Shown here piece by piece: positions 5,873 through 54,560 of a stretch of 64,000 nt of DNA. The stretch comes from Catajapyx aquilonaris (taxonomy: Eukaryota), in NCBI GenBank assembly GCA_000934665.2, contig KZ537967.1:62001-126000 (forward strand). Reading direction: 5' to 3'. Below the pieces are notes generated by a model. The model did not search any database, was not told the DNA's origin, and was given only the letters and a program-made list of their open reading frames with translations. How positions within the stretch are numbered: position 1 is the stretch's first letter; every line of letters begins with the position of its first letter. Made by a program: the position numbers and the translations under genes.

Positions 5873-6250
5873 AGGGATATACATAAGAGGGGCGAACTTT
5901 GGTAATCGCCTTTGATGTCCGCGTGTCTCTGTTTGGGGCCGTTGCCAAGGCTGGCGGCCATTTTGAAGCGGGGGGAACGCCAACGAGGTATAACTAGGGT
6001 ACAGGCAGGCCGTAAGGTCCGCCATCTTTGATGGATTTGGCTGCCATGGCAATACACGGCAAGAACACGCGCGAATTCGAATATTTTTGGGGTATCAAAG
6101 ATGGCGGACCTTATGGCCTGCCTGTACCCTATTTATACCTCGTTGGCGTTGCCCCCGCTTCAAAATGGCCGCCAGCCTTGGCAACGCCCCAAACAGAGAC
6201 ACGCGCGAATCGAATGTTTGCGCCTCTTATGTGTATGTATATGCTCCCTG
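5873..6250. mobile_element. Foldback-type MITE with ~160-bp inverted arms
   Basis: Left arm 5873-6032 and right arm 6094-6250 are near-perfect reverse complements (e.g. GTTGCCAAGGCTGGCGGCCATTTTGAAGCGGGGG vs CCCCCGCTTCAAAATGGCCGCCAGCCTTGGCAAC); flanked by TATA runs. Confidence 0.8.
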
Positions 6251-13590: not shown

Positions 13591-13680
13591 CGACCTGAAG
13601 GTGGCAGGAGTGTGCAGAGGGATGGTGCGACATCTATGCCTGAAGGAAAGTACTATGTGGTAAATCGGTGGGTCATCTTT
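13591..13680 (+). repeat. Short dispersed repeat (~80-90 bp), copy 1
   Basis: CGACCTGAAGGTGGCAGGAGTGTGCAGA...CATCTATGC...GTACTATGTGGTAAATCGG; also at 15108 and 46702, diverged at 32596. Confidence 0.8.
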
Positions 13681-25284: not shown

Positions 25285-27805
25285 AGGTTGTGCAATTAAT
25301 AACAGCAAGCCTTTCAAAAATACTGTAGGAGCATGTGTTAATGCCAGAACAATGTGACACGTAAGTAGGAGCCAGCTCCCATTGTTTCTTCGTCTCCAGA
25401 CTTATGTTTCAAAGCCAATTATCTCCCAATTTTATCCACCCACCTTGCACAACAATGGAATTTATTACACCCTGTTGGACTTGTATAAAACCTTATTCCT
25501 CCTAGCAGAGCTTCCCCCTAAAAATAAATTTCCGATATGAAATTTCTCCCCCTCTTCAAAGTAAAGCCGATCTTCCTTCACTTTATCTTCGCCAGACACC
25601 GCCTGACGACTCCATTCATCGAAAGGAACTCCTCCGGTATTGTTATACCCGGGTTTTTTTCCAGATCAATTCCAGGGGCCCAAGAGCTTGTTTCGCTCCT
25701 TCTCAACAGAAAATGTCTGATGGACCACCTTTTTTTTTAAAAGGCTCGCAAGTTTTTCCTGATTGCCCAGCACCAAAAGCACCGCCAATGCAAATGAAGG
25801 TTACGCCGCTTTTCGGGGAGGTGGCCCAGCTCAGACAAGGAAGCTCCAGCGAGGAATTTATCTGAGCTGGCCTTATAGTGTGAAGGGGGATTACCCCGCA
25901 AATTGGCACTTTGGGGGCCCCAGGGCTGGAAAAGCCCCTCAGCCCAAAAGAGGAAAGGAAGGAATATGCGGCCAGTGCTTGCCTTTCAAATGCTTTCCGA
26001 CGGAACAGGTGACGGGTTTTGTGGGGGTTAAAGAGGGTGCTGAGAATTGGGTAGGAAGAAGAGCAAGGGTATTCTCTTTGGCAGATTTGCAAGGATGCCA
26101 AGGGCTTATTCGAGGCCTGATCTCTTTTTAGCCCAGATGTGTTCTTCGCACCTTTTCCAGCTAGGCCAAACGTGGAACATTTCGGGGGGAGATTTTCCAA
26201 ACTGATTACGCGGCTTTGCGTCTAGGAAAAACTGTGGTTCTGTGGGATTCTACTTCAGCGAGTGGCCTAAATAGGCTCTGGGTTATAGTGTGTACCGTTC
26301 ACTGTTCCTACTTAATTAAGAAGAGTAAGCAAACACCTTAGTTTCTTCCGCAGCCTCCATACAATACAGAAGAGGAAACAGAAGCTACATGATCAACACG
26401 GATTATATTAAATTTATTCAATTTGGTTGTCGGTTTTACTTGTTTCATAAATCCATGAATTGGTCTATTAATTTGTATGTGCATTTTTCTTGCATGTTTT
26501 TATTTTAAAATATTTTTACAATTGTACAGCCAACTTGGCTGAGATGTGTATTAGAAATTAGAGAACGTGTGTTTCGTAGGTACAATTTGGTTAGATTACT
26601 GCGAGTCCTAATATTCCAAACATGTTTGTGTTTCTGACCTAACGAGGCAAGGCTGGTTCTGATTGGCTTTCTTTGAAATTTGAACGCACTTCATTGGAAC
26701 CAAGAGCTGCAGCCCTGTAATTTAAATTGGAATGAAAAAAAGTCGAAATATAACGTAAGCCTTGAGAGTAAAATATGCAATAAAAACCAGTTAGGTCACA
26801 ACCTACTGCAGACATACTATAAACAAAACTATAATTTCAGCCAAATATTGCGCCAATCCCGAAAGTGCAATGACACAATCAGAAGACTAAGCGCATTTCA
26901 ACTCATCACAAACCCCATTTATATTCAGCCCATCACCGGTTGAGCAAACAGTGCAAAGAGATGATCCAACAAAAACACGACGTAATCAAAACTGGTCATT
27001 ACCGCACACAAAACTTTAAGATTCCAACCGCATAAAATTTCCCGCTTTTTTTTCTTTCTTTCTCTGCAAACAAAACATGCAACAATGTGACAACCAACCT
27101 GAATTTATGGCCTGCACGTATTGCAAACAGTGGAAATATGAAGCCTGATAGGTCTATACACGTCGTCGCATCCCAAACGAGTATTAATCCAGAAATCAAC
27201 CAAATGACTCCCAACCACACATTGCAGGTCATTTGCTTTCCCCGGGTTGCCCATTACAACCGGGTGTCACTGCTGGGAAAAAACTTATGCAAGCGGACGC
27301 ATTGTAATCTCGCAATTTTTATGGTTCACCTCCCTCCATCACGTTATATATTAATAAATCGAGGCCCCCCTACTCTTTTTTTTTATTATTCCAAGCCGTC
27401 AGAGTCCGAATCATACTGTTTCATTCGAATCACGTCTCATCAAGCCTCGACAACTTGCATATTTAATCCTGTTTCTAGTTCGCAATTTTTTTTCCTAGGT
27501 GATAACCAGAATGTAGTTTTTTTTGGACGTCGACACTGAAACTCTCTCTCTCTCTTTTTATTATTTCGAAAACCCTGCAGCTTTGCTCTATCTCTAGAGT
27601 GATGAATGCAAATCTCTCGTCCTTGGTCGGCAAATAATGTGCAGATTCGGGCTCTCCATGCTGCCATTTCCCTCCAGGCAACAAAGTCATCAATTTCCTA
27701 TCCACCGGTTCAATGGGCTGAGAGACCCCTAAATTTTAGGCTCCATTCATTCGGCTTGTCCCTCTCTGAAATCTGCAAACCATCAATTTCCTGCCCATTC
27801 CTCCA

Positions 27806-27901: not shown

Positions 27902-29756
27902 TCGGGGCAAAGTTTAAACAGATGGGAAGCAATTTCGGGGTGGGAACTTGATCAACGATTAGTTCATCGATACGGAATAACTGAAGCTAATCGCTGATCG
28001 GATCGCTGATCACGTAGCAAACCGAACGAATCATCATCGCTTCTCTTGCTATTCAGGTAATGGTGGGTACATGATTAACGCAATATTGTGAAGCTATTAC
28101 AGTGTTCATTCGGGCCAAATTCGTGCCTCAGGAGTCATGTTTAAGTATTAGCCGATATTATAGCCAGAAACGAGGAGATTGAATAATATTTTATTCATGC
28201 ATTTTAATAATTTATAACTAATTTTCTGCTTGTGTTAAAAATCAATAGCTAATATGTTTGATACTTTCCACAAGAGTCACTGCATATAATATCAGCTTCT
28301 TAGGTCAAAAATAATATCTAATTATAAAGTACACCTGCTACTTTCTCAGCCTATAAGAGAACTGTACAACTTTCCAATATTACGTTAACATAAACATATA
28401 GTTATACAAGCTACAGTTCAAATAATATTAGTATCCAAAAACCTCATGCATACAACGTGCCCATATGTTTTCGTTTCCCTCGAGTAAGCTGTTTTAAATG
28501 AACAGACTCCGGCGGCTAATCAAAATTCAAAATAATAGTACCAAAAGTAGCACAACACTATGCGCCCCAGCATGTGATATGTATATAAAACGAGCTGGAA
28601 ACATCGCCCCCGTACTATATATTTATAAAACCGACGAGTGTTTTTTTTTGGAATAAAACCCGGAGAGGTAACGCGACCAACAATCCCCGCAATCAACTTA
28701 TGATCTGGGATTCTGTGCATCCCCCACAGATCCAGCTGTTATGTACACACCATTAATCAACCCAGCTCCAGCCCCCACAGCCAGACTACTCCTTGTTGCC
28801 AGCTTCATTATTGAAAATGCGTTTTAAAAATCAAGCTCGGAAAACCGAATGCGATTACTATGCATTTGTCCATTTACATTGCATCTTCATATGCAACCCG
28901 ATTATTAAAGCGGTCCCCTCCCCCTCCCAAAATTGAATTTAATTCCGCGAACCACAGCAACAAACAAATTAATCTACATTACTAATGCACGCGCGATAAA
29001 GTCGGCCTCCCATGAAAATTAGGAATCGGTTCAGAGGACAAATCGAAATTGGCCTACGTTGCCGACATAATCGCTGAGTGCAAAAATTTACGCGATAAAA
29101 AATGCGCATAACCAGTTCTTCTGAAATAATTAAATCATCATACACTCAGCAACTTACATAAATATATACGAGTACGTATCGCTCAAAAAGACGGACAATA
29201 GCATTTAATTTCAATGAAATGTCATCTCCATATTTTCTGAGCGATCCAGGAACTACATAATGTAATATACAATATTAATCAAATGCCTGAATTTCAAGAA
29301 AAGCCAGAGACATCAAAAATTTATAAGCCAATTTTTTTTTGCTATAGTTACACACCTCGTTAGCAATCAAACAGTCATTGATCAATCAGTCTGTCAAGAG
29401 ATGGTTATATTCTTGTATACGCCTCATCACTCCTAGCCACCGCATATTACGCGAGGAAATCTCTCGTAAACTCAACCTCAAATCCACACCATTTGGAAGC
29501 TGGGTGCTCGTTCATTGGGTTGAAAATGCCGGAAAAAAAGAGAGCAAGTCCAACCCTCCCCCTTTCAAACGTTATTGCCACCCTTTCCTGGCCCCCATAC
29601 CCCTTCTAGATCGAAATCGAGCGGAGGCCACAAAACCGAGACCAAATTGGGTTTCGTCCCCACCACTCACATCTAATCCACCTACTTGTGTCCATATCTG
29701 AATTACGTCTAATGAGTTTACATCGCGGCTGGACCAAAACACACACACACCCACAC

Positions 29757-30015
29757 CTGTTATAATGTGCTATCCTTGTGAGGGTCTGGCAAAAATAAAA
29801 ATTTAAAACTAACCTAACCTAACCTACAAAAAACACACGATATTTTGGTGACCTATTTTTTCACAGTAAAAAGGAGGTCTTGGTTTGATTTTCCGCCATC
29901 CTTGTGAGGACTGTGTACCTTATGAGGGCCTGCAAAAAGTCCTCGTAAGGTTTTCGGTCCTCACAAGGATAGGAAACAAGCGAAAAAAATCCTCACAAGG
30001 ATAGCAATGTCTGAT
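29757..30015. mobile_element. MITE-like element inserted in a (CA)n microsatellite
   Basis: Subterminal 16-bp perfect IR TGCTATCCTTGTGAGG (29768-29783) / CCTCACAAGGATAGCA (29991-30006); identical 13-nt flanks CACACACCCACAC (29744-29756, 30016-30028); internal CCTAA repeats and repeated CCTTGTGAGG motifs. Confidence 0.7.
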
Positions 30016-30527
30016 CACACACCCACACACACAAAAAGTTCATCATATAGTTGCTACAGGGCTACACATAATATATTTTAGAGTGTGTGATAGTTCCGGT
30101 AACTGCTTTTAATATTACTTATGGCCATATGCATTACTGTGTCAGTTTGACTCAACTACGTATCAATCTCACATCCAAGTGTCAAACTCAGGGTGAGACA
30201 GTTCAAGGTACCAGAAACTGTCATATCAAAAGGAAATACTAATTACCATATGCCTAACGCGTATCATTGTGACAGCAGACAGTGACTAGTCAGTACATGC
30301 CGGAGAAGATAGGAATCAGTGAATGTCATATCATCCTAGCACCAATGGGCTTGCGACTAGTATCGTTTTCAGGGACTTGGAAAAGGGTCAGTTTGTTTCA
30401 TCCTGTTAAGAATAGTGGTTACTCTCTCTTGTGATTGTCTCTACAACATACAGTACATAGCCGGAATATCAGTGTGAAACTCTCGTAACACCAACGTAAA
30501 CGCCTTGTAATTGCACATGCGGAGAAG

Positions 30528-32522
30528 ATGAGTTTTCGCGAAAAAGTTATGTCTGTTTTTGCTGCCTTCCTGGCTCTGTCCAATGGGACAAACGTGACCA
30601 TCCAGCCCGATTGTCCAGAGGATGTGACCTTGTCCGACATGGTCTCTAACCTGGACAGAGGACAGTGTGGTCTGGTGGTGTCGACGGACTGGACCCACCT
30701 GAGCCCACCGATGGAGAGACTGGTGATTGGTCGGACGGAGGAGTACAGCCCGATCCTATTGGTACGGATGTTGGACTGGACATTCCCCCACTCCTTCGAG
30801 GACCACCCTGGACTGACGGGACAGGACCAGATGCTGGACTGGAGGACTGTCCCTCCTTCCCTCATGTCCAGGGTGGGGACAGGGACGCACTGCACCGGAC
30901 ACCTGGTGCTGGTCAAGGAGGCCTCGGTCTTCCCAGAGCTGCTCATCCACACCTCCACCATCGCTATGGTACAACCTGGGGAGGACTGGTTCCTCATTCA
31001 CTTCTCATCCTCTCCTGAGGGTCAGAGGTCAGAAGTAAGGAGACACAGAGTCATGACCTCTGTCCCTGCCACTGCCCTCAGGCTGAAGGTGGTCACCAGT
31101 CCCACAGGAGAAGGAGGGATGCTGAAGATGGAGGACACTTGCTTCTTCTGCGGGGATGGGGGAAGGCCACGGGTGAGGACACTGGGGGACTATCAGATGA
31201 ACCAAGGTCACATGCTGAAGGGTCTCTTAAGGAGCAGATTCGAGCACATGAATGGGAAGAAGGTCAGGGCAGGATGCTACTTGGACATGGATTTTCAAGA
31301 GGGAAGGAAGGTCTGGAAGGAGTCTGGGGAAATAGCAGTGAATGCTTACGCACGCGCAATGTTGCTGACCGAAAAACATATGAACATGACACTAGAAGTT
31401 TATGTCAAAGAGCTACGAGGAGATGACTATGATTTTATGCTGCCAAACGGAACATGGGAGGGTATGCTGGGGGACATTCTCTCTGGAAAAGCCGACATAG
31501 CACCTGGTTTGTATCTCTCGGATACGACATACCCTTACCTGCTTCACCCACATCCTTTCCTTTACGGACACGGGACCTTCATGACCAGACACCCCGAGGG
31601 AGTGATCAACTGGCGGGTCATATACAGACCCTACCCTCTGGTCTTCTGGGTCTGCTTCTTGGTCACCCTCGTCCTGGTCACCCTGGCTGTCAACCGACTT
31701 TCTCTGTGGAGATCCGGACTGGATGAGCAGCATCTGCACCGACCTTTGACCTTCCTCCAGTCCATGGGTCTCGTCCTTCGTCACCTCCTGGAGCAGCCCA
31801 TCCACTTCCCTCGCACCAGACGGTTCCTGGTCCTGGCCTCCTTCTACTGCCTCCTCTTCGTGATGGTGGTGGTCACCGGATACAAGGCCAAGCTAGTTTC
31901 ATTCCTGACCTGGCCTCCCAGGGAATTTGTCCCAACAAATATCCACGAATTACATGGTTCTAATTGGACTGTCGAAACAAATTTGTTCCAGTACATGTTC
32001 ATGAGCAAGTTTGTGAAGGATTCTAATGACCCTATTCTGAAAGAAGTTATGCTGGAAAGAATTCAAGTGGCAGACACTTTTCGAAGCTGCTTGTACAAAA
32101 CACGTACAGAGAATGTCGCCTGCGCAGGTGTCAATATCTTAATAGAGCAGGATGAACTACATCGCTTCATGGACACTACTGCCCAACTGACTGTCAGATT
32201 TTCCAAGGATCGTGTGTTGCCATCTTACGTGTCGGCACCCGTGTCTCGAGGAGAAACCTCCCTGTTCTACCTCCTGCAGAACTTATTTCGGATGGGCAAT
32301 GACAACATGGACATGACTCGCAAGTTATTGTCCGACGATCGTTACATGCGTTTCCTTCGTCGACTGAAGGTGATTCGAGCAGAGGAAGAGAATAGAGAGG
32401 CGGAGGTCCTCGCAGAAGAAGTTCTGACAGTTCGCAAATTGTCTTCAATGTTTCACATCTGGCTCCTGGGCCTCCTTCTCTCTCTTGTCTTATTCATATC
32501 GGAAATTTTAAAGAGGAAATAA
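30528..32522 (+). CDS. Divergent ionotropic receptor (IR; variant ionotropic glutamate receptor family chemoreceptor), intronless, 664 aa
   Basis: Signal-peptide-like N-terminus; S1 motif PNGTWEGMLGDILSGKADIA; pre-M1/M1 YRPYPLVFWVCFLVTLVLV; pore-loop LLEQP; gating helix VVVTGYKAKLVSFLTWP (homologous to SYTANLAAFLT); C-terminal TM LTVRKLSSMFHIWLLGLLLSLVLFISE; uninterrupted ORF; AATAAA overlaps the stop codon. Confidence 0.93.
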   Translation: MSFREKVMSVFAAFLALSNGTNVTIQPDCPEDVTLSDMVSNLDRGQCGLVVSTDWTHLSPPMERLVIGRTEEYSPILLVRMLDWTFPHSFEDHPGLTGQDQMLDWRTVPPSLMSRVGTGTHCTGHLVLVKEASVFPELLIHTSTIAMVQPGEDWFLIHFSSSPEGQRSEVRRHRVMTSVPATALRLKVVTSPTGEGGMLKMEDTCFFCGDGGRPRVRTLGDYQMNQGHMLKGLLRSRFEHMNGKKVRAGCYLDMDFQEGRKVWKESGEIAVNAYARAMLLTEKHMNMTLEVYVKELRGDDYDFMLPNGTWEGMLGDILSGKADIAPGLYLSDTTYPYLLHPHPFLYGHGTFMTRHPEGVINWRVIYRPYPLVFWVCFLVTLVLVTLAVNRLSLWRSGLDEQHLHRPLTFLQSMGLVLRHLLEQPIHFPRTRRFLVLASFYCLLFVMVVVTGYKAKLVSFLTWPPREFVPTNIHELHGSNWTVETNLFQYMFMSKFVKDSNDPILKEVMLERIQVADTFRSCLYKTRTENVACAGVNILIEQDELHRFMDTTAQLTVRFSKDRVLPSYVSAPVSRGETSLFYLLQNLFRMGNDNMDMTRKLLSDDRYMRFLRRLKVIRAEEENREAEVLAEEVLTVRKLSSMFHIWLLGLLLSLVLFISEILKRK

Positions 32523-32595
32523 AAATATTATCTCAAATTCCATCCAAAATTATAGACAAAATTATAGCACCAACGTGCACGCAGTACCACTTTCC

Positions 32596-32660
32596 CCTGA
32601 GAGTGGCAGTAGTGTGCAAAGAGCCTATGCGCCAACTGGTAGTGGCCTATCGTACTACGT
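32596..32660 (+). repeat. Short dispersed repeat, diverged copy just 3' of the IR gene
   Basis: CCTGAGAGTGGCAGTAGTGTGCAAAGAGCCTATGCGCCAACTGG...CGTACTACGT aligns by eye to the copies at 13591/15108. Confidence 0.5.
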
Positions 32661-33720
32661 CCAAGTGGGATATGTGCCAAGCAGTGTTTCCAAAATTTGG
32701 TATCGAGTCCGCTACTAGTGAGAGAAATGCTAATATCTGGACAGCCATAGTAACAATTGTGAAAGTGCTTTTGTCCAAGGAACAAGGATCAATTGTTTGT
32801 TCGAGTCTCTGAGGATGTCCAGCATCTGAGATGCTCCAGAAAATGGGTATCCAATGGGCTGCTAGGTTTGGTCAGAGCCCAACGGAACACACCACGTTAA
32901 GCCCCATTCACTGACACTAATTGAGTGCAAGGTGATGGATTATTCAGCTTCCCCAGACAAATGGTTTTCCACTCCTCTCTTCTTGCTTCTTTTGCCTCAC
33001 CCAAAAAAAAACGAGCGACTGGGGCGTCAATGGACTGCCTAAATCGAGATTCAAGAAGAGGGAGACCGGAGACATTTGTGCTGTCGGAAAACGGCGTCGT
33101 TTGTTCCGGAGTCGACGGTCAGTCGGACCACCGGATTATTCCCTAGGGATGTGTCACAGTCGACTTTTCACAATAATCCGCACTGTTTCCTCCAGCATGA
33201 TTTTCAATTATTTCAAAACAGTATGTGATGACTAATTTTTTTTTGCAGTCCTAAAATTTGCGAGACACGGGGACAGGCTGTGGGAGGAATGCAATCGCAG
33301 GGAAAGCTCATTTCCATTAGTTATTTGTCATTTGCAAAAGCCTCCCCTGCTGGCAATGAGAAAGGAGCCGCGATTCCGATCCGCTCTCTTGGCTCATAAG
33401 CTGCTCTTGTATTATTCACCCCCGAACCCTTCAGCCTGGAAACTCCTCCGAAAACCTTTACCTCCCCCTCCCCCCACACAGAAAATCTCACTCACTCTAA
33501 TAAATGGCTGCCACAATTTTGTGCATTTCAAAAAAAAACCTCTGGAGAAAATCGGAAGCAAAGGTCGCACGCTATGTCAACTATCATATAGTAGTCGTGG
33601 TCGGTGATTAGTTCACGTGTATTTGGGCTTCTGGATCAATGTGCCCAAAGTTTCTTCGCCGGATGTTTCACACCCTGCTCTAAATTACAGCAATTTTAAC
33701 CTTCGCGTTGGGTTCAGGAA

Positions 33721-37008: not shown

Positions 37009-37385
37009 GTATCGATATGTATCGATATATCGATATTCACGGGTAGCGTTTTGGACAAACATCCGGAAGGAACTTCCCATTTCTACACGAAGATTTCCCC
37101 TTCCGCGATATATCGCTATAGCCCGTCCTCGATATATCCTTTCCTCGATATATCATGTCCTCGATATATCGATATATCCTTTCCTCGATATATCGATATA
37201 TCCTTTCGCTCCCTCGATATATCATGTTCTCGAGATATCGATATAGCCTGTCCTCGATATACCATGTTCTCGATATATCGATATATCCTTTCCTCGATAT
37301 ATCCTTTCCTCGATATATCATGTTCTCGATATATCGATATAGCCTGTCCTCGATATATCCTTTCCTCGATGTGATATGTCGATAT
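37009..37385. repeat. TCCTCGATATATC / TATCGATA-rich minisatellite array
   Basis: Mixed 16- and 24-nt units built on CTCGATATATC; several TATCGATA palindromes. Confidence 0.9.
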
Positions 37386-39517
37386 TTATGGGTGTCTTCG
37401 ACAGCCACCAGGAAGGAATTTCCCCCATTTTATACAGCGAGATGCGTAGGGGCTATCAGTGCCTGAAGAGGAAACATGGGAGGGTAAACACATCTGTGGA
37501 CATTGCAAGGTGCTGACTCGGAGTTAGGGCGCGGCTCGAATTTGTAGCCCTGCGTTTCCAGGGTGTTATTACGCTGCCGGAATTACGGGCGGGCCCAGGT
37601 AATCATTCATTCTCAGCCGACTGCAGTCGTTAAGGGTGCGCCCTAGAGACATGCCCTGGCTACCAGTACTACTCGACCTCTGCAGTACAAACTTGGAGAT
37701 GAAAACAAAAAGAGGTACAGACAGGGGAGGCTGAACCGTGTCGAAGGTGCCATGTCCCAAACATTTTGCCGACCTATAAGGCCACGTCTTGAGCCATGAA
37801 TAATATACAGGCTTGGGAGGCATGCGCCATACAACGTTGTAGTTTTGTTGGTATCAGCAAACATAACGTCAGTAGGTTAAAACAAGGGTCGAAATCCAAT
37901 GCAATCGGTGCCGACCAGATGGCAAACCTCATCCTGGCCAATCACTATTCCAGCCGTTTGCCACTGCTAAATTATGCGACCGGCATGCATCTATTTCCGA
38001 GCACTTTAAAAAGGTTGCAGCTCTAATGCATATTGACGTGAAGGACCGGACTCGTTAGTTAGATATTGGTACGAATGATTTAAAAAAAAAGTATGTCGTG
38101 CATACTGCACAAACATCATGTCCTGAAACAAATAACACCGATGAACCCTGGTGAACTCACTGTCAGACGTTATATAGCATACTGTAGAAAGGTAAGCCCA
38201 AAGGCGACTAGAAATGTATGGGACGCAATGGAGATTAAAAAGTTTTCATGGGAGGGGTTCAGACGTACGTTGCATGCACTAAGTATGCAGAGAATGATTT
38301 CAGACAAAGCAGGTCTTTGCAAAACCGAAACGAGCCCTGAAGGATACAACGCACTCGGGCAGAAATGCGATGAAATGCGTCACTGAGTTCCACCCAAAAC
38401 TTCTACATTATATGATGTGATAACCAACCGGGTGTAACGAAAGGATTAAACAATTGGACTCGGAAAGCGTCTATGAATTTTCTCATATTTATACACACAT
38501 GTGCACATATATTTTCTTCTGGTGTAACATTCTCCATTTTTTAAAGCTCCATTTTAGGTACTTTCACCACTTGAAACATTGTAGCCAAGCCCCTGCCATA
38601 GTTCTTCAAAGGGCTCCAAATGAGCTGGAGTTCGTGCTGGTCCAGAATACTGATGACTTTTCCCTTAGTTCTCTTTTGCTCCATTCATGCACTCCATTTT
38701 ATCCATTCTTTTTTTACCCCCTTATTCCTTTTTATCATTTCCTATATACCAGAGTCTCTTGAAGCATTTTTCCTCCACATACACCCAGAGGGACAATACA
38801 CGACCGATTTGGCACTGCAGCCACATTCCTAATGCAATTTTGCAAAGTGCGTCCACTTCCTCAATATAAAAAAAAATTGTCCATTTCGAATATTACTCAT
38901 ACACAATTGTAGCCCGATAGCAGTGTGGAAATAAAGAAGAATCTCATAAAAATTGTGCATCCGGGGATCGTAAACCTTCCCTGCATTTCCTTATCATCCG
39001 GAAAGAATTGTACGGGACCGGTCCGGGTCGTAATGCATCATCGGGGGGAGTGGGGGTATCCTGGAGGACCAAATTCGAAACAGCTCAGAGTTAAACCTAG
39101 GCAATCGAGCAGCCACATCACCTTGAATCCTTCTCTCTCTTTTTTTTGTACCTCCCCATATACCCTTCCTCCTCTCTCCATCTTTACTCAGAGCAGTCTT
39201 GGGTATTTACTGGAGAAGCTTGCTCGGAGAGTCTCCCCCGGATAAACGCCGACAGGGTCTCTCCATAAAGCCTCACTTGGGCCTCCATCCAGAACCCAAA
39301 CTCGTCTCTTTCCTGCCCCCCCCCCCCTTCCAACTGCTGCAACAATCGATTGGCAGAAGGGGGGGCGAAAAGGGCTATATGTCCTGCCACCTACATTCCT
39401 AGGGTCTCCTCTAATGGTCAGACCTATAGTTCAAAACATGTGAAGTGTTGGACATGAGGTCTATCAAAAAGCTTGCAAAAAAATATTACATAATCTGCCA
39501 CAAATTTCGAGTGGTTG

Positions 39518-42805: not shown

Positions 42806-43507
42806 GAATACAATATTCGTTCTTGAATTAATACCACCCGGCGACTTGTTATTGGTCACTTCCGCTCACACTTCCGGTGTATTATTCCGCTAGATGTCCT
42901 TCCAAAACTGGGATTAGATAAGGCCTTCCTGTTTTGGATTCGGTTCCTTCGCCCGGTGTTGCTCAATTCCCAGCACACGTCCCACAGCGTTTTGATTTAT
43001 TAATCCCGCCTCGCTTATATTCGTTCCTAATGTGACTAAACAGAATCATTAGCTGACTCGGTGAGAATTAAACAGGCAAGATACTCCGTTTCGTATATGA
43101 AGATGGCTGCGGGCCAAAAATTCGCAACAAAAAAACAATGGCTGAAAATATTTTTCGGAGACTTTATGATTAAACCTTTTGTTTATATTTAATACGATAT
43201 TGCAAGGACAAAAGGAATTGCTCCTCTTGCAAGCGTGTTTAACGGGCCTGTACACGAATCATCCGATAGATTACCCAGCACCCAAAAAACTGGTTTTTTA
43301 ATTACGTCACTTTCATTACCGCAAAGTCTGGGGCAGCCTGGTTAATGTTATCTCATTAAAAGGGCTTATTAACTGCCAGTCAAAAAAGGGTATGAGGTGT
43401 ACATTCCATATTTTTTTTTTTTGGGGGGGGGGCAGAGTGTTACAGGATATCTCTCATATCAGTGGCTTGTAAGCTGGCCTGATAGTCGCTGAAAATTTTG
43501 GCCAATA

Positions 43508-43835
43508 ATCGAGAAACTACAATATATCGAGGAAATGTGATATATCGAGGAAGTGTGATATATCGAAGAAATTCGATAGACCGAGAAACTACGATAGACC
43601 AAGAAACTACGATAGATCGAGAAACTACGATAGAACGAAAATTCAATATATCGAGGAAGTGTGATATATCGAGGAAGTGTGATATATCGAGGAAATTCGA
43701 TAGATCGAGAAACTACGATAGAACGAGAAACTACGATAGAACGAAGAAATTCGATATACCGAGGAAGTGTGATATAGCGAAGAAGTTCGATATATCGAGA
43801 TGCTTCGACAGATCGAGATTCTACGATAGATATAG
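43508..43835. repeat. 18-bp minisatellite with alternating unit types (GATATATCGAGGAAGTGT / GATAGATCGAGAAACTAC)
   Basis: About 18 units of 18-nt period arranged in blocks; shares the GATATATCGAGGAA core with the reverse complement of the 37.1-kb array. Confidence 0.9.
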
Positions 43836-45733
43836 ACATTACGATTATTTATTCACTGCTTCTGATATCTATCCTCGCGAACTCAGGTCTCAGGATTCCT
43901 ACACTATATTTATCTCCAACATCTCAGCCATACGTTGCAATCTCCCAGCAGTTAGTGTCTGTTTCTAAGTCTCCCGAATTATTAAAAATGTACACAACAC
44001 TTAAAGGCATTACCCCGAAGCCTTGCACTCCTGAATCGATGCTGGCTATATCAAGGTGAGGGTAAACAGGAACATTGGCGGCTCTAGAAATCGCAATCGG
44101 ATTTGAAACTGGAGAAGCAACGTGGGCAACCAGGATTTATCTGCCCTGCTTCTTCTTTCTTTTTCTTTTTTTTTATCTATCTCCTCCTCCTTTCTCTCCC
44201 CCCCCACTAGATCCTCCCCACTACTACCCATCCAGCTTCCCCAGCTGCCTTCTACAGCAAAGTGGGTCTGTGATCGTGAATCGATGTCGCCCAACTTTTG
44301 CACTTCAAATCCAAAGCCAGCTAAAAATTGCTGATTCCAAGAGATCCTTCCCACCCACCTCCCACCCACCCATACCACCCCCACCTCTTTTACTTATATA
44401 GGCTCATCCATTCGTTTTCATCGTTTTGGAGAATCGATGACTGAGGACTACGCTGGGGTCATTTCCCGACCTGAGGATTTTCATGACGCAAGGGAGAGGT
44501 GGGTCATTTTCGTTCAAGTGATCAATACATTTTTTGGGGCAAAGCCACGTTTTTAGACGGCTCCAAATGGAGAGAGAAAATGGTAGAAAAATCGGACAAA
44601 ATTTTCTTGCGGGAAATAGGTGTAGCCTAATTATTGGCAAATTCACACATAATTCACGTCCACACTGCTCTTAGCTGCAATTGGGCCCAGAGAAATCAAT
44701 CTTTGTGCGCTGAATTATAAAGGAAGGAAATTCCCTGACGCAACTGCGGAACGCTTTTGTGCTAATTTCCCAACGCGTACATTCATCTATTGAATACAGA
44801 AACAAAAATGCGCCATGTTGTCTGCTCCACCTACCTATAAAAAAAACTGGGGTTGAAGAATAGGCATGTCATATATAGCACCAGATTTCCAACAAACGCA
44901 CAACGCTAAACACAACTCTACCCCATTCATGACGTTCATATCTGCATTCAAGCTCTCATTGTACAGACACTAGTGATGCTCCAATGGCATAATCTTCATC
45001 CTGTAGGACCACAGGGGCATAGAGGAAAACTCGATAGCTATGAATTATTCCAACTGTAGACTACAATCTATTTAGACCACCAAACTAGCCCTTCCGGAAT
45101 GTAAGCATTTTTTTTGCTTCTCTTTTGAGAGATACCGCTCAAAGTTTGATTATCTTCTGAATTATTAAGGTACCTTTCGGAGTGCAAATACCACGTCAGA
45201 GAGATGCATCGTTGAAATGCTACGATGAATTAATCACCAAGCTTCTGTTTGTGGCTCGGACATTATATTTTCCCTTTTCGTCTACTGCCATTCGAAATAT
45301 TTTATGAACCTCTCTTCGGGTGATTGCCCCTGTAATACGCCGCTTTTATATCCACCCATTTGCATCCATGTAAATCATGCACGATTTTAAAATTTTATCA
45401 TAATTATGCCCATCAGTTGACGTCTTCTCAAAGAGTCTGAAATGTCAAGCGCTTAATTATTGACAAGAAATGCGTCATGTAATGCTGATATTTTTTTGTA
45501 ACCATATAATGCTGATTGCACATTTTTTTTAAATTTTTAGTATAAATTTGAAAAATACTTCTCTCGACTCATCTGACAGTATTACTATGCAGATTGCATC
45601 GTACCCTAACCGCAGTTGCCAATTATGAAAACCGCGCATTGCAATAAGCCAAAAGCTTTAGAGGCCAAGAATTCCAAGCACTTGACAAGGATCAAGCAGG
45701 CTAACAAGCTCAGCAAAAAAAATAATCAATGGC

Positions 45734-46701: not shown

Positions 46702-46998
46702 ACCTGAAGGTGGCAGGTAGGTCTGTGCGATATTTCGATACATAGATTGTCGATACGATATTTTCATAATATCGAAGTTGCGATATCCGACGATGTATCG
46801 AATATCGTGATTTTTCGATGTCGGTTTTCGATGTCAGTTTTTCGATTTTCGATATATCGACTTCGATTCGATATGTTTTAGTATCGAAAGTCGATATGCA
46901 ATTTCGGATATCGCACAGCCCTAGTGGCAGGAGTGTGCAGAGCGCCATCTATGCGTGAAGAAAAGTACTAAGTGGTAAATAGGCGGGCCATCTCATTA
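46702..46998 (+). repeat. Short dispersed repeat, copy interrupted by a hAT MITE
   Basis: Removing 46718-46931 restores ACCTGAAGGTGGCAGGAGTGTGCAGAGCGCCATCTATGCGTGAAGAAAAGTACTAAGTGGTAAAT. Confidence 0.85.
46718..46923. mobile_element. hAT-superfamily-like MITE (206 bp)
   Basis: TIRs TAGGTCTGTGCGATAT / ATATCGCACAGCCCTA (15/16 match); exact 8-bp TSD GTGGCAGG at 46710-46717 and 46924-46931; interior rich in CGATA/TATCG. Confidence 0.9.
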
Positions 46999-52300: not shown

Positions 52301-53517
52301 CCCATTGCGCAGGCGTAGAACGACGGCCAATCCTAAGCGTTGCGGTTACAATATACAGCGGGATTTGCCTCGTAAAGCGAATTATTTTAATATTATACCG
52401 GTAGATACATTTTAAACCCATTAATCTTGCTGACACACTGATTAGAAGCCTTCAGATAGTGCAAGCCTTTGAAATAATTTATTGGGGAGGATAATCCGGT
52501 TTTGAACAATACAATCCGGACTATTGATAATATTCTCAGCTTTATCGATATTTTTTTCATGGAATTTACATGCTAAAGGCATGTTTTCTTCAATTCCTCC
52601 TGAAGAACTAGCGTTATCGACATTGTTTTTTTTGTGCACAAGAAAATGCAGGGGTTTTTGAGACTATGGAATCTGCGGGAGTCGATTCACCTGCTCTCAA
52701 TCTCCTGGAAAGCTCTTCCTCCTCTCCGAGCATTTCTGCCCGGTTTTCCAACCCAAACTCCGGGCAGCTGACTATCGATCCTATGCTTTCCAGCCCGGAT
52801 CGTAATTTCACCCTAAGAAATTACAAACGCGGCAGCTTGTCATTAGGTTTTCCGACCGGCTAACCAGAGAGCCTTGTGATATAAGAAAGTCCTTTGTGTC
52901 GAGGAATCAACAATCCGGTTTACCAAGTAGGGGTATACACAGCAGAAAGTGATGACGCTGATTTTTTGGGGGTTTAAAAGAAAAAGATCGATTTTTTAAA
53001 AGTCGAGTTAAGCTAATTGATACCTCAGAGGAGGAGCTACTTCTTCATGCAAAGATAACCACAGATCGAGTCAAACTTTTTGAAGCGAAAAAAAAAAGTT
53101 CAACAACTTTGGGGGGTCTAATCTGATACTCCCACTTTGTGGAGACCAGGCGAGACAGCTTCCAACTAGTGATTGGCTGCGACGAGTCTTTTCAAGATGC
53201 CACTTGGGTTCTGTCAACCATTTTTCAAGATGTCACTTGCTGATTGGGATGCTCCGGAAATTTGGTGGGGTGGGAATGCACATCGGTGAGATTTAACCAT
53301 TAAATTGAAGGCAGATTGAATCAAAAACCATGCCTGTACATGGCACGAGTCTGAAGCTGTGAAGCCTACTACATAATGTTGAACTACGAATAATGTCAAA
53401 ACATTTATCAACCATATTTCAAGTATATTTTAAAAAATGTTTGAACACATTCGTTATAACAATGTGTTTGCTTGTGTCGTAATGAGATTAATCTAAAGAA
53501 GTATTTTAATTTTTTTT

Positions 53518-53527
53518 AAAAAAAAAA
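53518..53527 (-). terminator. Pol III oligo-dT terminator of the minus-strand tRNA
   Basis: A10 on + strand (T10 on -), 6 nt downstream of the tRNA 3' end. Confidence 0.7.
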
Positions 53528-53533
53528 CGAAGC

Positions 53534-53605
53534 TAGCAGAGCGTGGTTTCGATCCACGGACCTCTGGGTTATGGGCCCAGCACGCTTCCACTGCGCCACT
53601 CTGCT
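53534..53605 (-). tRNA. tRNA-iMet: Initiator tRNA-Met (anticodon CAT)
   Basis: Exact reverse complement of the 53729-53800 copy. Confidence 0.97.
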
Positions 53606-53728
53606 CCTCTTGTGTAGACTAGCTCTTAGATTTGCAGTCAAGATGCAATAATTGAACACATTCGTTATAACAATGTGTTCAATTATTGCATCTTGACTGC
53701 AAATCTAAGAGCTAGTCTACACAAGAGG

Positions 53729-53800
53729 AGCAGAGTGGCGCAGTGGAAGCGTGCTGGGCCCATAACCCAGAGGTCCGTGGATCGAAACCACGCTCTGCTA
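53729..53800 (+). tRNA. tRNA-iMet: Initiator tRNA-Met (anticodon CAT)
   Basis: AGCAGAGTGGCGCAGTGGAAGCGTGCTGGGCCCATAACCCAGAGGTCCGTGGATCGAAACCACGCTCTGCTA; A1:U72 pair, three G:C pairs in the anticodon stem, ATCG in the T-loop instead of TTCG: eukaryotic initiator hallmarks. Confidence 0.97.
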
Positions 53801-53806
53801 GCTTCG

Positions 53807-53814
53807 TTTTTTTT
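53807..53814 (+). terminator. Pol III oligo-dT terminator of the plus-strand tRNA
   Basis: T8 run 6 nt after the tRNA 3' end. Confidence 0.7.
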
Positions 53815-54560
53815 AAAAAAATAAAATAAAATACTCCTTTAAGATTAATCTCATTACGACACAAGCAAACAGGTAGTGCTTCACGAATTACTTTGCTTTT
53901 GTCGTAGATGTCGCGTCAAAGACAAGGTTTGCTTTGTGTCTAAAAGTGTGCATAGTTTATTCATGTCAAAGAGGACGGCATTTTCTTCTAATGTATACGG
54001 TATGAAGTGTGCATTAAAAGAAGCTTAAAAAATGCAAGTCTCAGTCCTGCTCATTTCCTAAATATTTTCATAAAAAGCAAGCTTCTATTCCACTCATCTC
54101 TCGAGAACTCCGCCAAAAAAAATTCCAGATAAGATATACATTTTTCACCTATACCAAAAGTCTGGCCTTGTTCCATTATTTTCCCTTAAAGCAAGAGGAG
54201 ATAAAACTTCAAGTTGTGGCCAAGTGTACAATATCAAACGCATTCCTAGAACGTTTAGTTTATGACGTTTTATGTGCATTGCTTTTGAGTTTCAACTGCA
54301 AATGACCGGTTCATTTGGAGCTATTATGTGAGCTTATATTTTATTCGCGACGTAGTGTTGGCGTTGCTATTGCTAATTAGCAGCGTTTCACGCACTGCCG
54401 AATTGAACGGTTGGATTAGAAATATTAATGAACACCATTTCGTGACTCATTTCCGCAACAAATATTGAACAATTTGAAACGTTACATGCATAATGTACGG
54501 TTAGGAAATATGAAAGGAATATGAGATGACATCGTGCAAATTACGTTTGATCTCCGTCAT

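Follow-up and report, generated by a model that had tools for sequence, protein, structure and literature searches.

The window analysed here, a 64,000-nucleotide stretch of the Catajapyx aquilonaris assembly GCA_000934665.2 (contig KZ537967.1, positions 62,001 to 126,000, forward strand), carries at 30528..32522 of the plus strand an uninterrupted open reading frame (ORF) of 664 amino acids in a single frame. Its predicted product is a divergent ionotropic receptor (IR) of the ionotropic glutamate receptor (iGluR) superfamily, and neither tblastn nor the family profile found a second IR or a donor piece in the window. The gene is a mosaic in base composition, in which two GC-rich blocks alternate with the two halves, S1 and S2, of the split ligand-binding domain. 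The features of the locus are listed below, where GC3 is the G/C share at the third positions of synonymous codons and M1, M3 and M4 are predicted membrane helices.

30528..32522 (+), single-exon divergent IR gene, assigned from the ORF, Pfam, the structure model and Foldseek
30528..30590 (+), signal peptide-like helix (helix 2–18) of background composition (GC3 7/19), from the model, with its role suggested by position and hydrophobicity
30591..31322 (+), GC-rich block 1, N-terminal domain and first ~23 codons of S1, GC 0.57, left edge uncertain (30561–30591)
30648..31196 (+), core of block 1, over which a single collapsed multi-copy contig aligns (ending at 31156 in the DNA runs X1 and X2), from contig depth
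31323..31568 (+), background-composition block with most of S1, GC3 0.39, containing Thr334, from change points
31569..31892 (+), GC-rich block 2, end of S1, pre-M1, M1, pore helix and most of the next helix, GC 0.59, from change points and the model
31893..32429 (+), background-composition block, S2, GC3 0.48, from change points and one unbroken exact-match contig (31824–32357/32392)
32430..32522 (+), M4 and tail, background GC3 (14/28), 13–15 paralogue contigs aligning at 32445, from the model and contigs

The Pfam Lig_chan match of the product was weak (25.5 bits, E 1.2e-5, below the curated cut-off of 30.8). The predicted structure, modelled from 100 aligned sequences with a predicted local distance difference test score of 82.3, shared the iGluR fold in Foldseek (best E 1.3e-20; GluD2 and AMPA receptors at E 1e-20 to 1e-17), and the family profile matched GluD1 with an E of 1.6e-60. 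Helices of the model at residues 371–398, 409–420, 432–461 and 635–663 would supply the S1–M1–pore helix–M3–S2–M4 architecture, and the segments derived from the structure were a signal helix (1–21), the N-terminal domain (22–242), S1 (243–355), pre-M1 to M3 (356–461), S2 (462–634), and M4 plus tail (635–664). The N-terminal domain is short, with ~220 residues ahead of S1, and the coding region lies in one exon, as profile positions 6–620 were matched in one frame.

Relatives of the protein were distant. The HMMER top matches were 21–34% identical, besides three fragments of 98–151 amino acids at 42–50%, and the named proteins among the ten top matches looked up were from Orchesella dallaii, with 24–28% identity; identities to proteins of this species ranged over 22–28%. 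A word search of 6216 candidates for close full-length relatives gave one match, a vertebrate GluD1-like protein; none of the 1528 candidates for shorter relatives matched, and the exact sequence was absent from the protein collection searched. A single-protein scan of metagenome contigs gave eight loci, drawn in by one 8-residue word; judged by the family profile, none of the eight is related to IRs, and they presumably resemble GMC-type oxidoreductases. In the S1 arginine column, 94 of 99 relatives carry Arg, and this otherwise intact gene carries Thr334 (codon 334, 31527–31529), which could reflect either a changed ligand or the onset of decay. Divergent IRs characteristically depart from the residues that bind glutamate, as this gene does at the S1 arginine.

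The mosaic had first been noted by hand counts in an earlier reading made from the letters alone (hereafter the sequence-only reading). Counted at synonymous codons with the borders of that reading, GC3 was 161/227 (0.71) in the N-terminal domain, 28/72 (0.39) in S1, 85/110 (0.77) in M1–pore–M2, 78/160 (0.49) in S2, and 15/31 (0.48) in the last helix and tail, and G/C occupied 76/119, 14/39, 50/68 and 34/72 of the four-fold sites in the first four segments, respectively. With the structural borders, GC3 was 146/205 (0.71) in the N-terminal domain, 51/104 (0.49) in S1, 78/101 (0.77) from pre-M1 to M3, and 79/163 (0.48) in S2. The corresponding contrast of 0.245, compared with a null of 0.009 ± 0.038, was equalled by none of 10,000 amino-acid-preserving shuffles. 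Therefore the amino-acid-composition control, named beforehand as able to overturn the mosaic, left the GC3 difference standing.

Change points placed without supervision gave the same picture. Three points, at 31323, 31569 and 31893, had the best Bayesian information criterion, and the likelihood gain for one to four change points was matched in none of 200 within-amino-acid codon shuffles. Between the resulting blocks the Mantel–Haenszel odds ratio was 4.1, with a shift in the same direction in 17 of 18 amino acids, so that amino-acid composition is excluded as the source of the contrast by the codon shuffles and the within-amino-acid shifts together. The breakpoint intervals at two log-likelihood units covered codons 247–282, 343–351 and 449–467, compared with structural borders at 243, 356 and 462, and a random triple of points fitted the domain borders equally well in 2.7% of 100,000 draws. 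These results confirmed that the GC3 mosaic of the IR gene is real. The values of about 75% and about 40% first proposed were upheld in the N-terminal domain (0.71), the channel (0.77) and the S1 core (0.39), but S2 as a whole is at 0.48–0.49. Likewise, the scaffold is GC-rich in its N-terminal and channel parts but not in M4 and the tail (14/28, 0.50), and the steps lie near the domain borders, but two of the three fall a few codons inside S1. Introns and exon shuffling were rejected as an explanation, in agreement with the sequence-only reading, since the whole gene is a single uninterrupted frame. A patch within S2 at 32193–32327 has a GC3 of 0.63–0.67 and is possibly a third, weaker converted tract.

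The GC content of the window is 43%, and the composition of S1 and S2 is like this background, so the deviant parts of the gene are the GC-rich N-terminal and channel blocks, not the ligand-binding lobes. It is thus a process acting on these two blocks that needs explaining. Dinucleotide frequencies further set the blocks apart. The strand-symmetric observed/expected ratios in the GC-rich blocks vs. the rest of the gene were 0.40 vs. 0.83 for GpC, 0.36 vs. 0.78 for CpG, 0.32 vs. 0.60 for TpA, and 0.64 vs. 1.05 for AA/TT. Taken singly, block 1 (30591..31322) had ratios of 0.39, 0.30 and 0.31 for GpC, CpG and TpA, and block 2 (31569..31892) a GpC ratio of 0.44. Among the 300-base windows of the 64 kb (those with N excluded), nine combined a GC content of at least 0.53 with a GpC ratio of at most 0.65, and all nine lay over the two GC-rich blocks. 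At synonymous-variable steps the blocks had 28 GpC vs. 53.3 ± 4.4 expected (0 of 2000 shuffles), compared with 23 vs. 24.8 outside them. None of the 27 Gly codons in the blocks is GGC, and the share of Ala is 2–3% there vs. 7% in S1. Antisense ORFs of 192 and 159 codons (30419–30997 and 31416–31892, minus strand) overlie the GC-rich blocks; an overlapping antisense gene was rejected as the cause of the composition, as these frames are probably by-products of the scarcity of TpA and AA/TT.

Paralogues of the gene were sought in the contigs of four DNA runs (X1–X4), aligned to 30001–33000 at ≥80% likeness. The runs are of one sample, possibly the source of the window itself. Summed contig depth does not give copy number and rare variants are dropped in such contigs, so depths of single contigs were used for inferring copies. 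The listing comprised 40 of the 325 rows of differences and, from 2205 aligned pieces, the 32 longest, so the zones drawn from it are approximate. Exact-match contigs of the gene's own copy had depths of 26.5–42.7 in X1 and covered 30004–30641, 31133–31326, 31318–31494 and 31824–32357; those listed thus end at 31494 and restart at 31824, around GC-rich block 2. Over 30648–31156 (to 31196 in X3 and X4) a single contig aligned, with depths of 354.8, 250.8, 309.5 and 202.1 in the four runs, which are 8.0–11.0 times the median of the exact-match contigs. This collapsed contig is ~93% like the gene, with 32–41 other letters and 18 gap letters, and at the listed sites from 30764 to 31126 it was the only one. 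Each 31-letter word of the collapsed path would therefore be common to about ten copies, hereafter the pool. At 31004–31049 the gene is 18 bases longer than the pool contig, with the frame preserved.

Downstream of this core the shared path splits stepwise, from one contig up to 31156–31196 to 2–3 contigs at 31283–31292. In S1, the listed sites at 31390–31429 had only 1–3 paralogue contigs in X1 (summed depth 48–150), and the S2 paralogue pieces listed carried 40/217 and 40/289 other letters (82–86% alike) at depths of 33.7 and 46.6 in X1. Two paralogue contigs matched both sides of 31369–31444 or of 31969–32052 with less than 80% likeness between, which corresponds to S1 residues 281–306 and S2 residues 481–509. 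In block 2, 4–7 paralogue contigs were found per listed site in X1, with a summed depth of 232–540. Further, one contig of 1483 nucleotides (X2 record 10, depth 34.5) contains the end of one IR, 1227 other letters and the start of the next IR, and shares a 30-base overlap with the collapsed contig. Tandem genes with private spacers, located elsewhere in the genome, therefore belong to the pool. The shared block is entered here from a single-copy spacer, an arrangement not expected from a recent duplication of whole units. When zones were drawn from contig ends alone, blind to composition, GC3 was 226/332 in shared vs. 149/288 in unique sequence (p 3.8e-5), with 122/170 and 86/124 in two shared zones vs. 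47/91 and 77/148.

The differences between the gene and the pool have a direction. Of the 27 listed N-terminal differences, 21 pair A/T in the gene with G/C in the pool, 2 run the other way, and 4 are exchanges of G and C (p 6.6e-5); without the indel zone the ratio was 16:2 (p 0.0013). At the steps touching 24 listed differences, GG/CC occurred 18 times in the pool vs. 2 in the gene, and GpC once in each. The extra G/C of the pool thus stands mostly beside a like base, which simple GC bias does not explain. Polarity was assayed with three protein fragments of 40–47% identity as outgroups. Among 11 changed residues, the outgroup was matched by the pool at 4 and by the gene at 1, with 6 uninformative, and these small numbers favour decay in the solitary copy. 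The 20 listed differences outside the indel zone comprise 13 non-synonymous and 7 synonymous ones, a ratio of non-synonymous to synonymous differences per site (pN/pS) of ~0.6. The N-terminal domain is moreover the least conserved segment among 99 distant relatives, with a mean pairwise identity of 0.168 vs. 0.23–0.27 elsewhere. Together these indicated that protein constraint does not explain the identity of this domain among the copies.

The explanation we prefer, at a probability of roughly three in four, is that tandem paralogues underwent gene conversion that was GC-biased and confined to certain regions, and that the now-solitary copy in the window is decaying toward the background. The gene would be one member of a divergent IR subfamily that has tandem members elsewhere in the genome, and in this subfamily repeated non-allelic conversion would have held two stretches alike among about ten copies, namely the N-terminal domain and the channel stretch from pre-M1 to M3. 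Heteroduplex repair favouring G/C may have raised both stretches to a GC3 of ~0.75, compared with a background near 0.4–0.5, and the spacers would have dropped out of conversion by diverging. S1 and S2 could have diverged past the likeness needed for conversion and so stayed at the background, probably since selection for different ligands removed conversions; alternatively, a similarity threshold was simply passed. M4, being short and flanked by divergent sequence, may for that reason not have been raised in GC. The solitary copy, outside exchange, would have kept the GC-rich imprint and be slowly losing it toward A/T, a direction that the outgroups polarise weakly. The sequence-only reading had likewise proposed that the scaffold is homogenised with a GC bias and that the lobes escape, and the collapsed contig at 8–11-fold depth, the single-copy S2 pieces at 82–86% likeness and the 21:2 ratio support this, but M4 is not GC-rich. 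Its alternative, that S1/S2 cassettes were swapped in from other paralogues, finds no support in the background composition of S1 and S2 or in the listed rows, which include no multi-copy S1/S2 source. Nor does conversion diversify chemoreceptors segment by segment, as that reading had suggested: it makes the blocks alike and does not in itself diversify the receptors.

Several observations weigh against gene conversion with a GC bias. The 27 N-terminal differences counted are those listed out of the 32–41 that the collapsed contig carries, not counting one row that only aligned the adjacent difference in another way. The weak-to-strong excess fell to 125:96 (p 0.059) when all 3 kb were counted, and the four listed sites of the channel block gave no more than 3:1. 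A third shared zone, at 32328–32444 before M4, is not GC-rich (18/38), and block 2, with its 4–7 contigs per listed site in X1, shows a collapse less clearly than block 1. All four runs represent one sample and were kept as contigs; S1/S2 sequence below 80% likeness falls outside the alignment, and the S1/S2 pieces that did align are not tied to individual pool members. Plain GC bias, too, does not predict the GpC deficit of the blocks. Finally, the title of a paper cited in 10.1101/135152, as given in the available part of that source, denies a GC bias of non-allelic conversion in Drosophila or primates.

Among the other explanations, an unlikely one is a one-off chimera, equivalent to the cassette swap of the sequence-only reading, in which crossovers joined a GC-rich parent that gave the N-terminal and channel parts to a parent of background composition that gave S1 and S2. 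The sharp steps near the domain borders agree with such an origin, as does an N-terminal domain ~93% like the pool beside an S1 less than 80% like most pool copies. However, at least three exchanges would be required, and the GC-rich, GpC-poor state of the donor would be left unexplained. The contigs also speak against it, as a single-copy spacer runs into the shared block in X2 record 10, the shared path splits gradually with no single junction, and no multi-copy S1 or S2 contig is among the listed rows. Programmed cassette exchange, from donor pseudogenes to an expression site, would call for donor cassettes of the variable parts and for fixed, recurrent junctions; in the 64 kb searched there is no donor, and the shared block has a graded end.

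Very improbable is a composition unrelated to paralogues, whether it arose through selection on codons, an effect of membrane segments, or a footprint of mutation, methylation or recombination at this locus. The poverty of the blocks in CpG, TpA, AA/TT and GpC is context-dependent, unlike plain GC bias, and would suit a locus effect, as would M4, where many paralogue contigs align and GC is not raised. In contrast, one block is soluble and the other transmembrane while M4 is at background GC3, by which an effect of hydrophobic segments was rejected; GGC is wholly avoided for Gly in the blocks, the blocks coincide with paralogue-shared sequence, and GC is higher in the pool than at this locus. 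A recent whole-gene duplication, after which S1 and S2 diverged very rapidly under positive selection while the copies exchanged no sequence, can hardly be credited: it would account for the paralogue stretches below 80% in S1 (281–306) and S2 (481–509) and for the lost S1 arginine, but amino-acid selection does not set synonymous GC, where the contrast lies, no G/C excess in the pool is expected from it, and the flanks and the spacer are single-copy.

Region-limited conversion of this kind is already known from other gene families, and the present gene is well supported as a clear, fading trace of it; the expectation of an undescribed system in the window was therefore not borne out. In the exons of fugu protocadherins (Yu et al., 2007; PMC1852091, as far as its available text goes), a block that is >99% identical among paralogues has a GC3 of 54–69%, vs. 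38–45% in the divergent part; the corresponding values in the IR gene are 71–77% and 39–49%. In both cases part of a single exon is near-identical among tandem copies, and the specificity-bearing part is divergent in the protocadherins and probably so among the IR copies. Selection that removes conversions has been put forward for the variable part of protocadherins, and we propose it for the IR lobes. Unlike the protocadherins, the IR is a chemoreceptor ion channel, its two blocks are interleaved with the halves of a split ligand-binding domain, and its trace is fading and found in a solitary copy, the tandem pairs lying elsewhere and none at this locus. The available part of the fugu account (PMC1852091) makes no mention of a GpC deficit like that of the IR blocks.

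Selection against conversion has also been described, in the accessible portions of these sources, for opsins and protocadherins (PMC3924837; PMC3966226; Noonan et al., 2004, via PMC3966226). As in the process proposed here, conversion keeps the primate L/M opsin and RHCE/RHD duplicates alike except near selected differences (PMC3924837 and PMC3966226, in part), but these are two-gene systems with known selected sites, whereas the IR pool has about ten copies and candidate selected sites only. Human non-allelic conversion is GC-biased according to the part of 10.1101/135152 at hand, with 48.9% vs. 39.6% GC in converted regions and 61% weak-to-strong changes vs. 44% expected. The IR gene resembles these duplicates in the GC-richer converted regions and the weak-to-strong excess, but the human tracts, from the same part of that source, are of intron scale and their effect is milder.

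For arthropod chemoreceptors, in the available text of PMC4122928, 8 of the 14 orthologue groups tested across Drosophila chemosensory families, IR groups among them, show likely conversion, the effect of which is judged negligible; domain-aligned blocks such as those of this IR gene do not appear in that portion of the account. The word "conversion" is absent from the main text of Croset et al. (2010; PMC2924276) and of the paper on the Campodea augens expansion (PMC6938034). The present gene is like the arthropod divergent IRs in the available parts of these two papers in its single exon, short N-terminal domain, S1–channel–S2–M4 order, low cross-species identity, and occurrence as tandem and solitary copies. 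No report of domain-aligned conversion blocks in IRs was found in the literature covered, in which subscription papers were thinly represented and supplements lay outside the scope, nor was one found there of a GpC deficit in converted tracts.

The window's contributions are the imprint in a solitary copy, a polarity of 21:2, and a GpC deficit that simple GC bias leaves unexplained and that is a measurable signature; the class of mechanism is old, which limits the surprise. Arthropod IR families are usually read as products of birth and death, and their trees and ratios of non-synonymous to synonymous substitution rates (dN/dS) are calculated from entire genes. Should conversion be homogenising two of the four main segments, trees, ages and tests of selection obtained in this way would be misleading, and S1 and S2 would need separate analysis. 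The comparison of the pool with the solitary copy further offers a direct test of GC bias in arthropod non-allelic conversion, on which the papers covered disagree.

Gene conversion among tandem IRs may be carried one step further, to a reading that we regard as doubtful, in which the IR repertoire is a constant/variable system within single exons. Context-dependent conversion would rewrite the N-terminal and channel blocks, selection would keep both lobes specific to each receptor, and S1 and S2 would be recombined between receptors by crossing over within the shared blocks. Repair would then add G/C beside a like base and avoid GpC, strongly enough to change amino-acid use; the suggestion of a context-dependent bias comes from the GpC counts at synonymous-variable steps (28 vs. 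53.3 in the blocks, 23 vs. 24.8 outside) and from the GG/CC steps (18 vs. 2). Were it true, the base composition of one gene would map the segments that specify the ligand and tell when the gene left the array, and there would be strong evidence for GC-biased non-allelic conversion in an arthropod.

Several repeats were also observed in the window. A high-copy dispersed repeat at 32596–32750 begins ~75 bases past the stop codon of the IR gene, with a summed contig depth of 6664 in X1 over 32601–32700, and related pieces lie at 13591–13674, 15108–15191 and 46923–46989. Upstream of the gene, a repeat-like stretch at 29700–30100 holds several cctcacaagga / tccttgtgagg words (summed depth 645 in X1 over 30001–30100). 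Two long inverted repeats are present, at 53510–53824 (153-base arms, 98% complementary, 9 bases between) and at 5933–6193 (100-base arms, 95% complementary, 61 bases between). Minisatellites at 43495–43868 (~18 bases) and 37090–37415 (~16 bases) are rich in CGATAT-type words, and compound trinucleotide repeats with nested inverted copies occupy 24821–25290.

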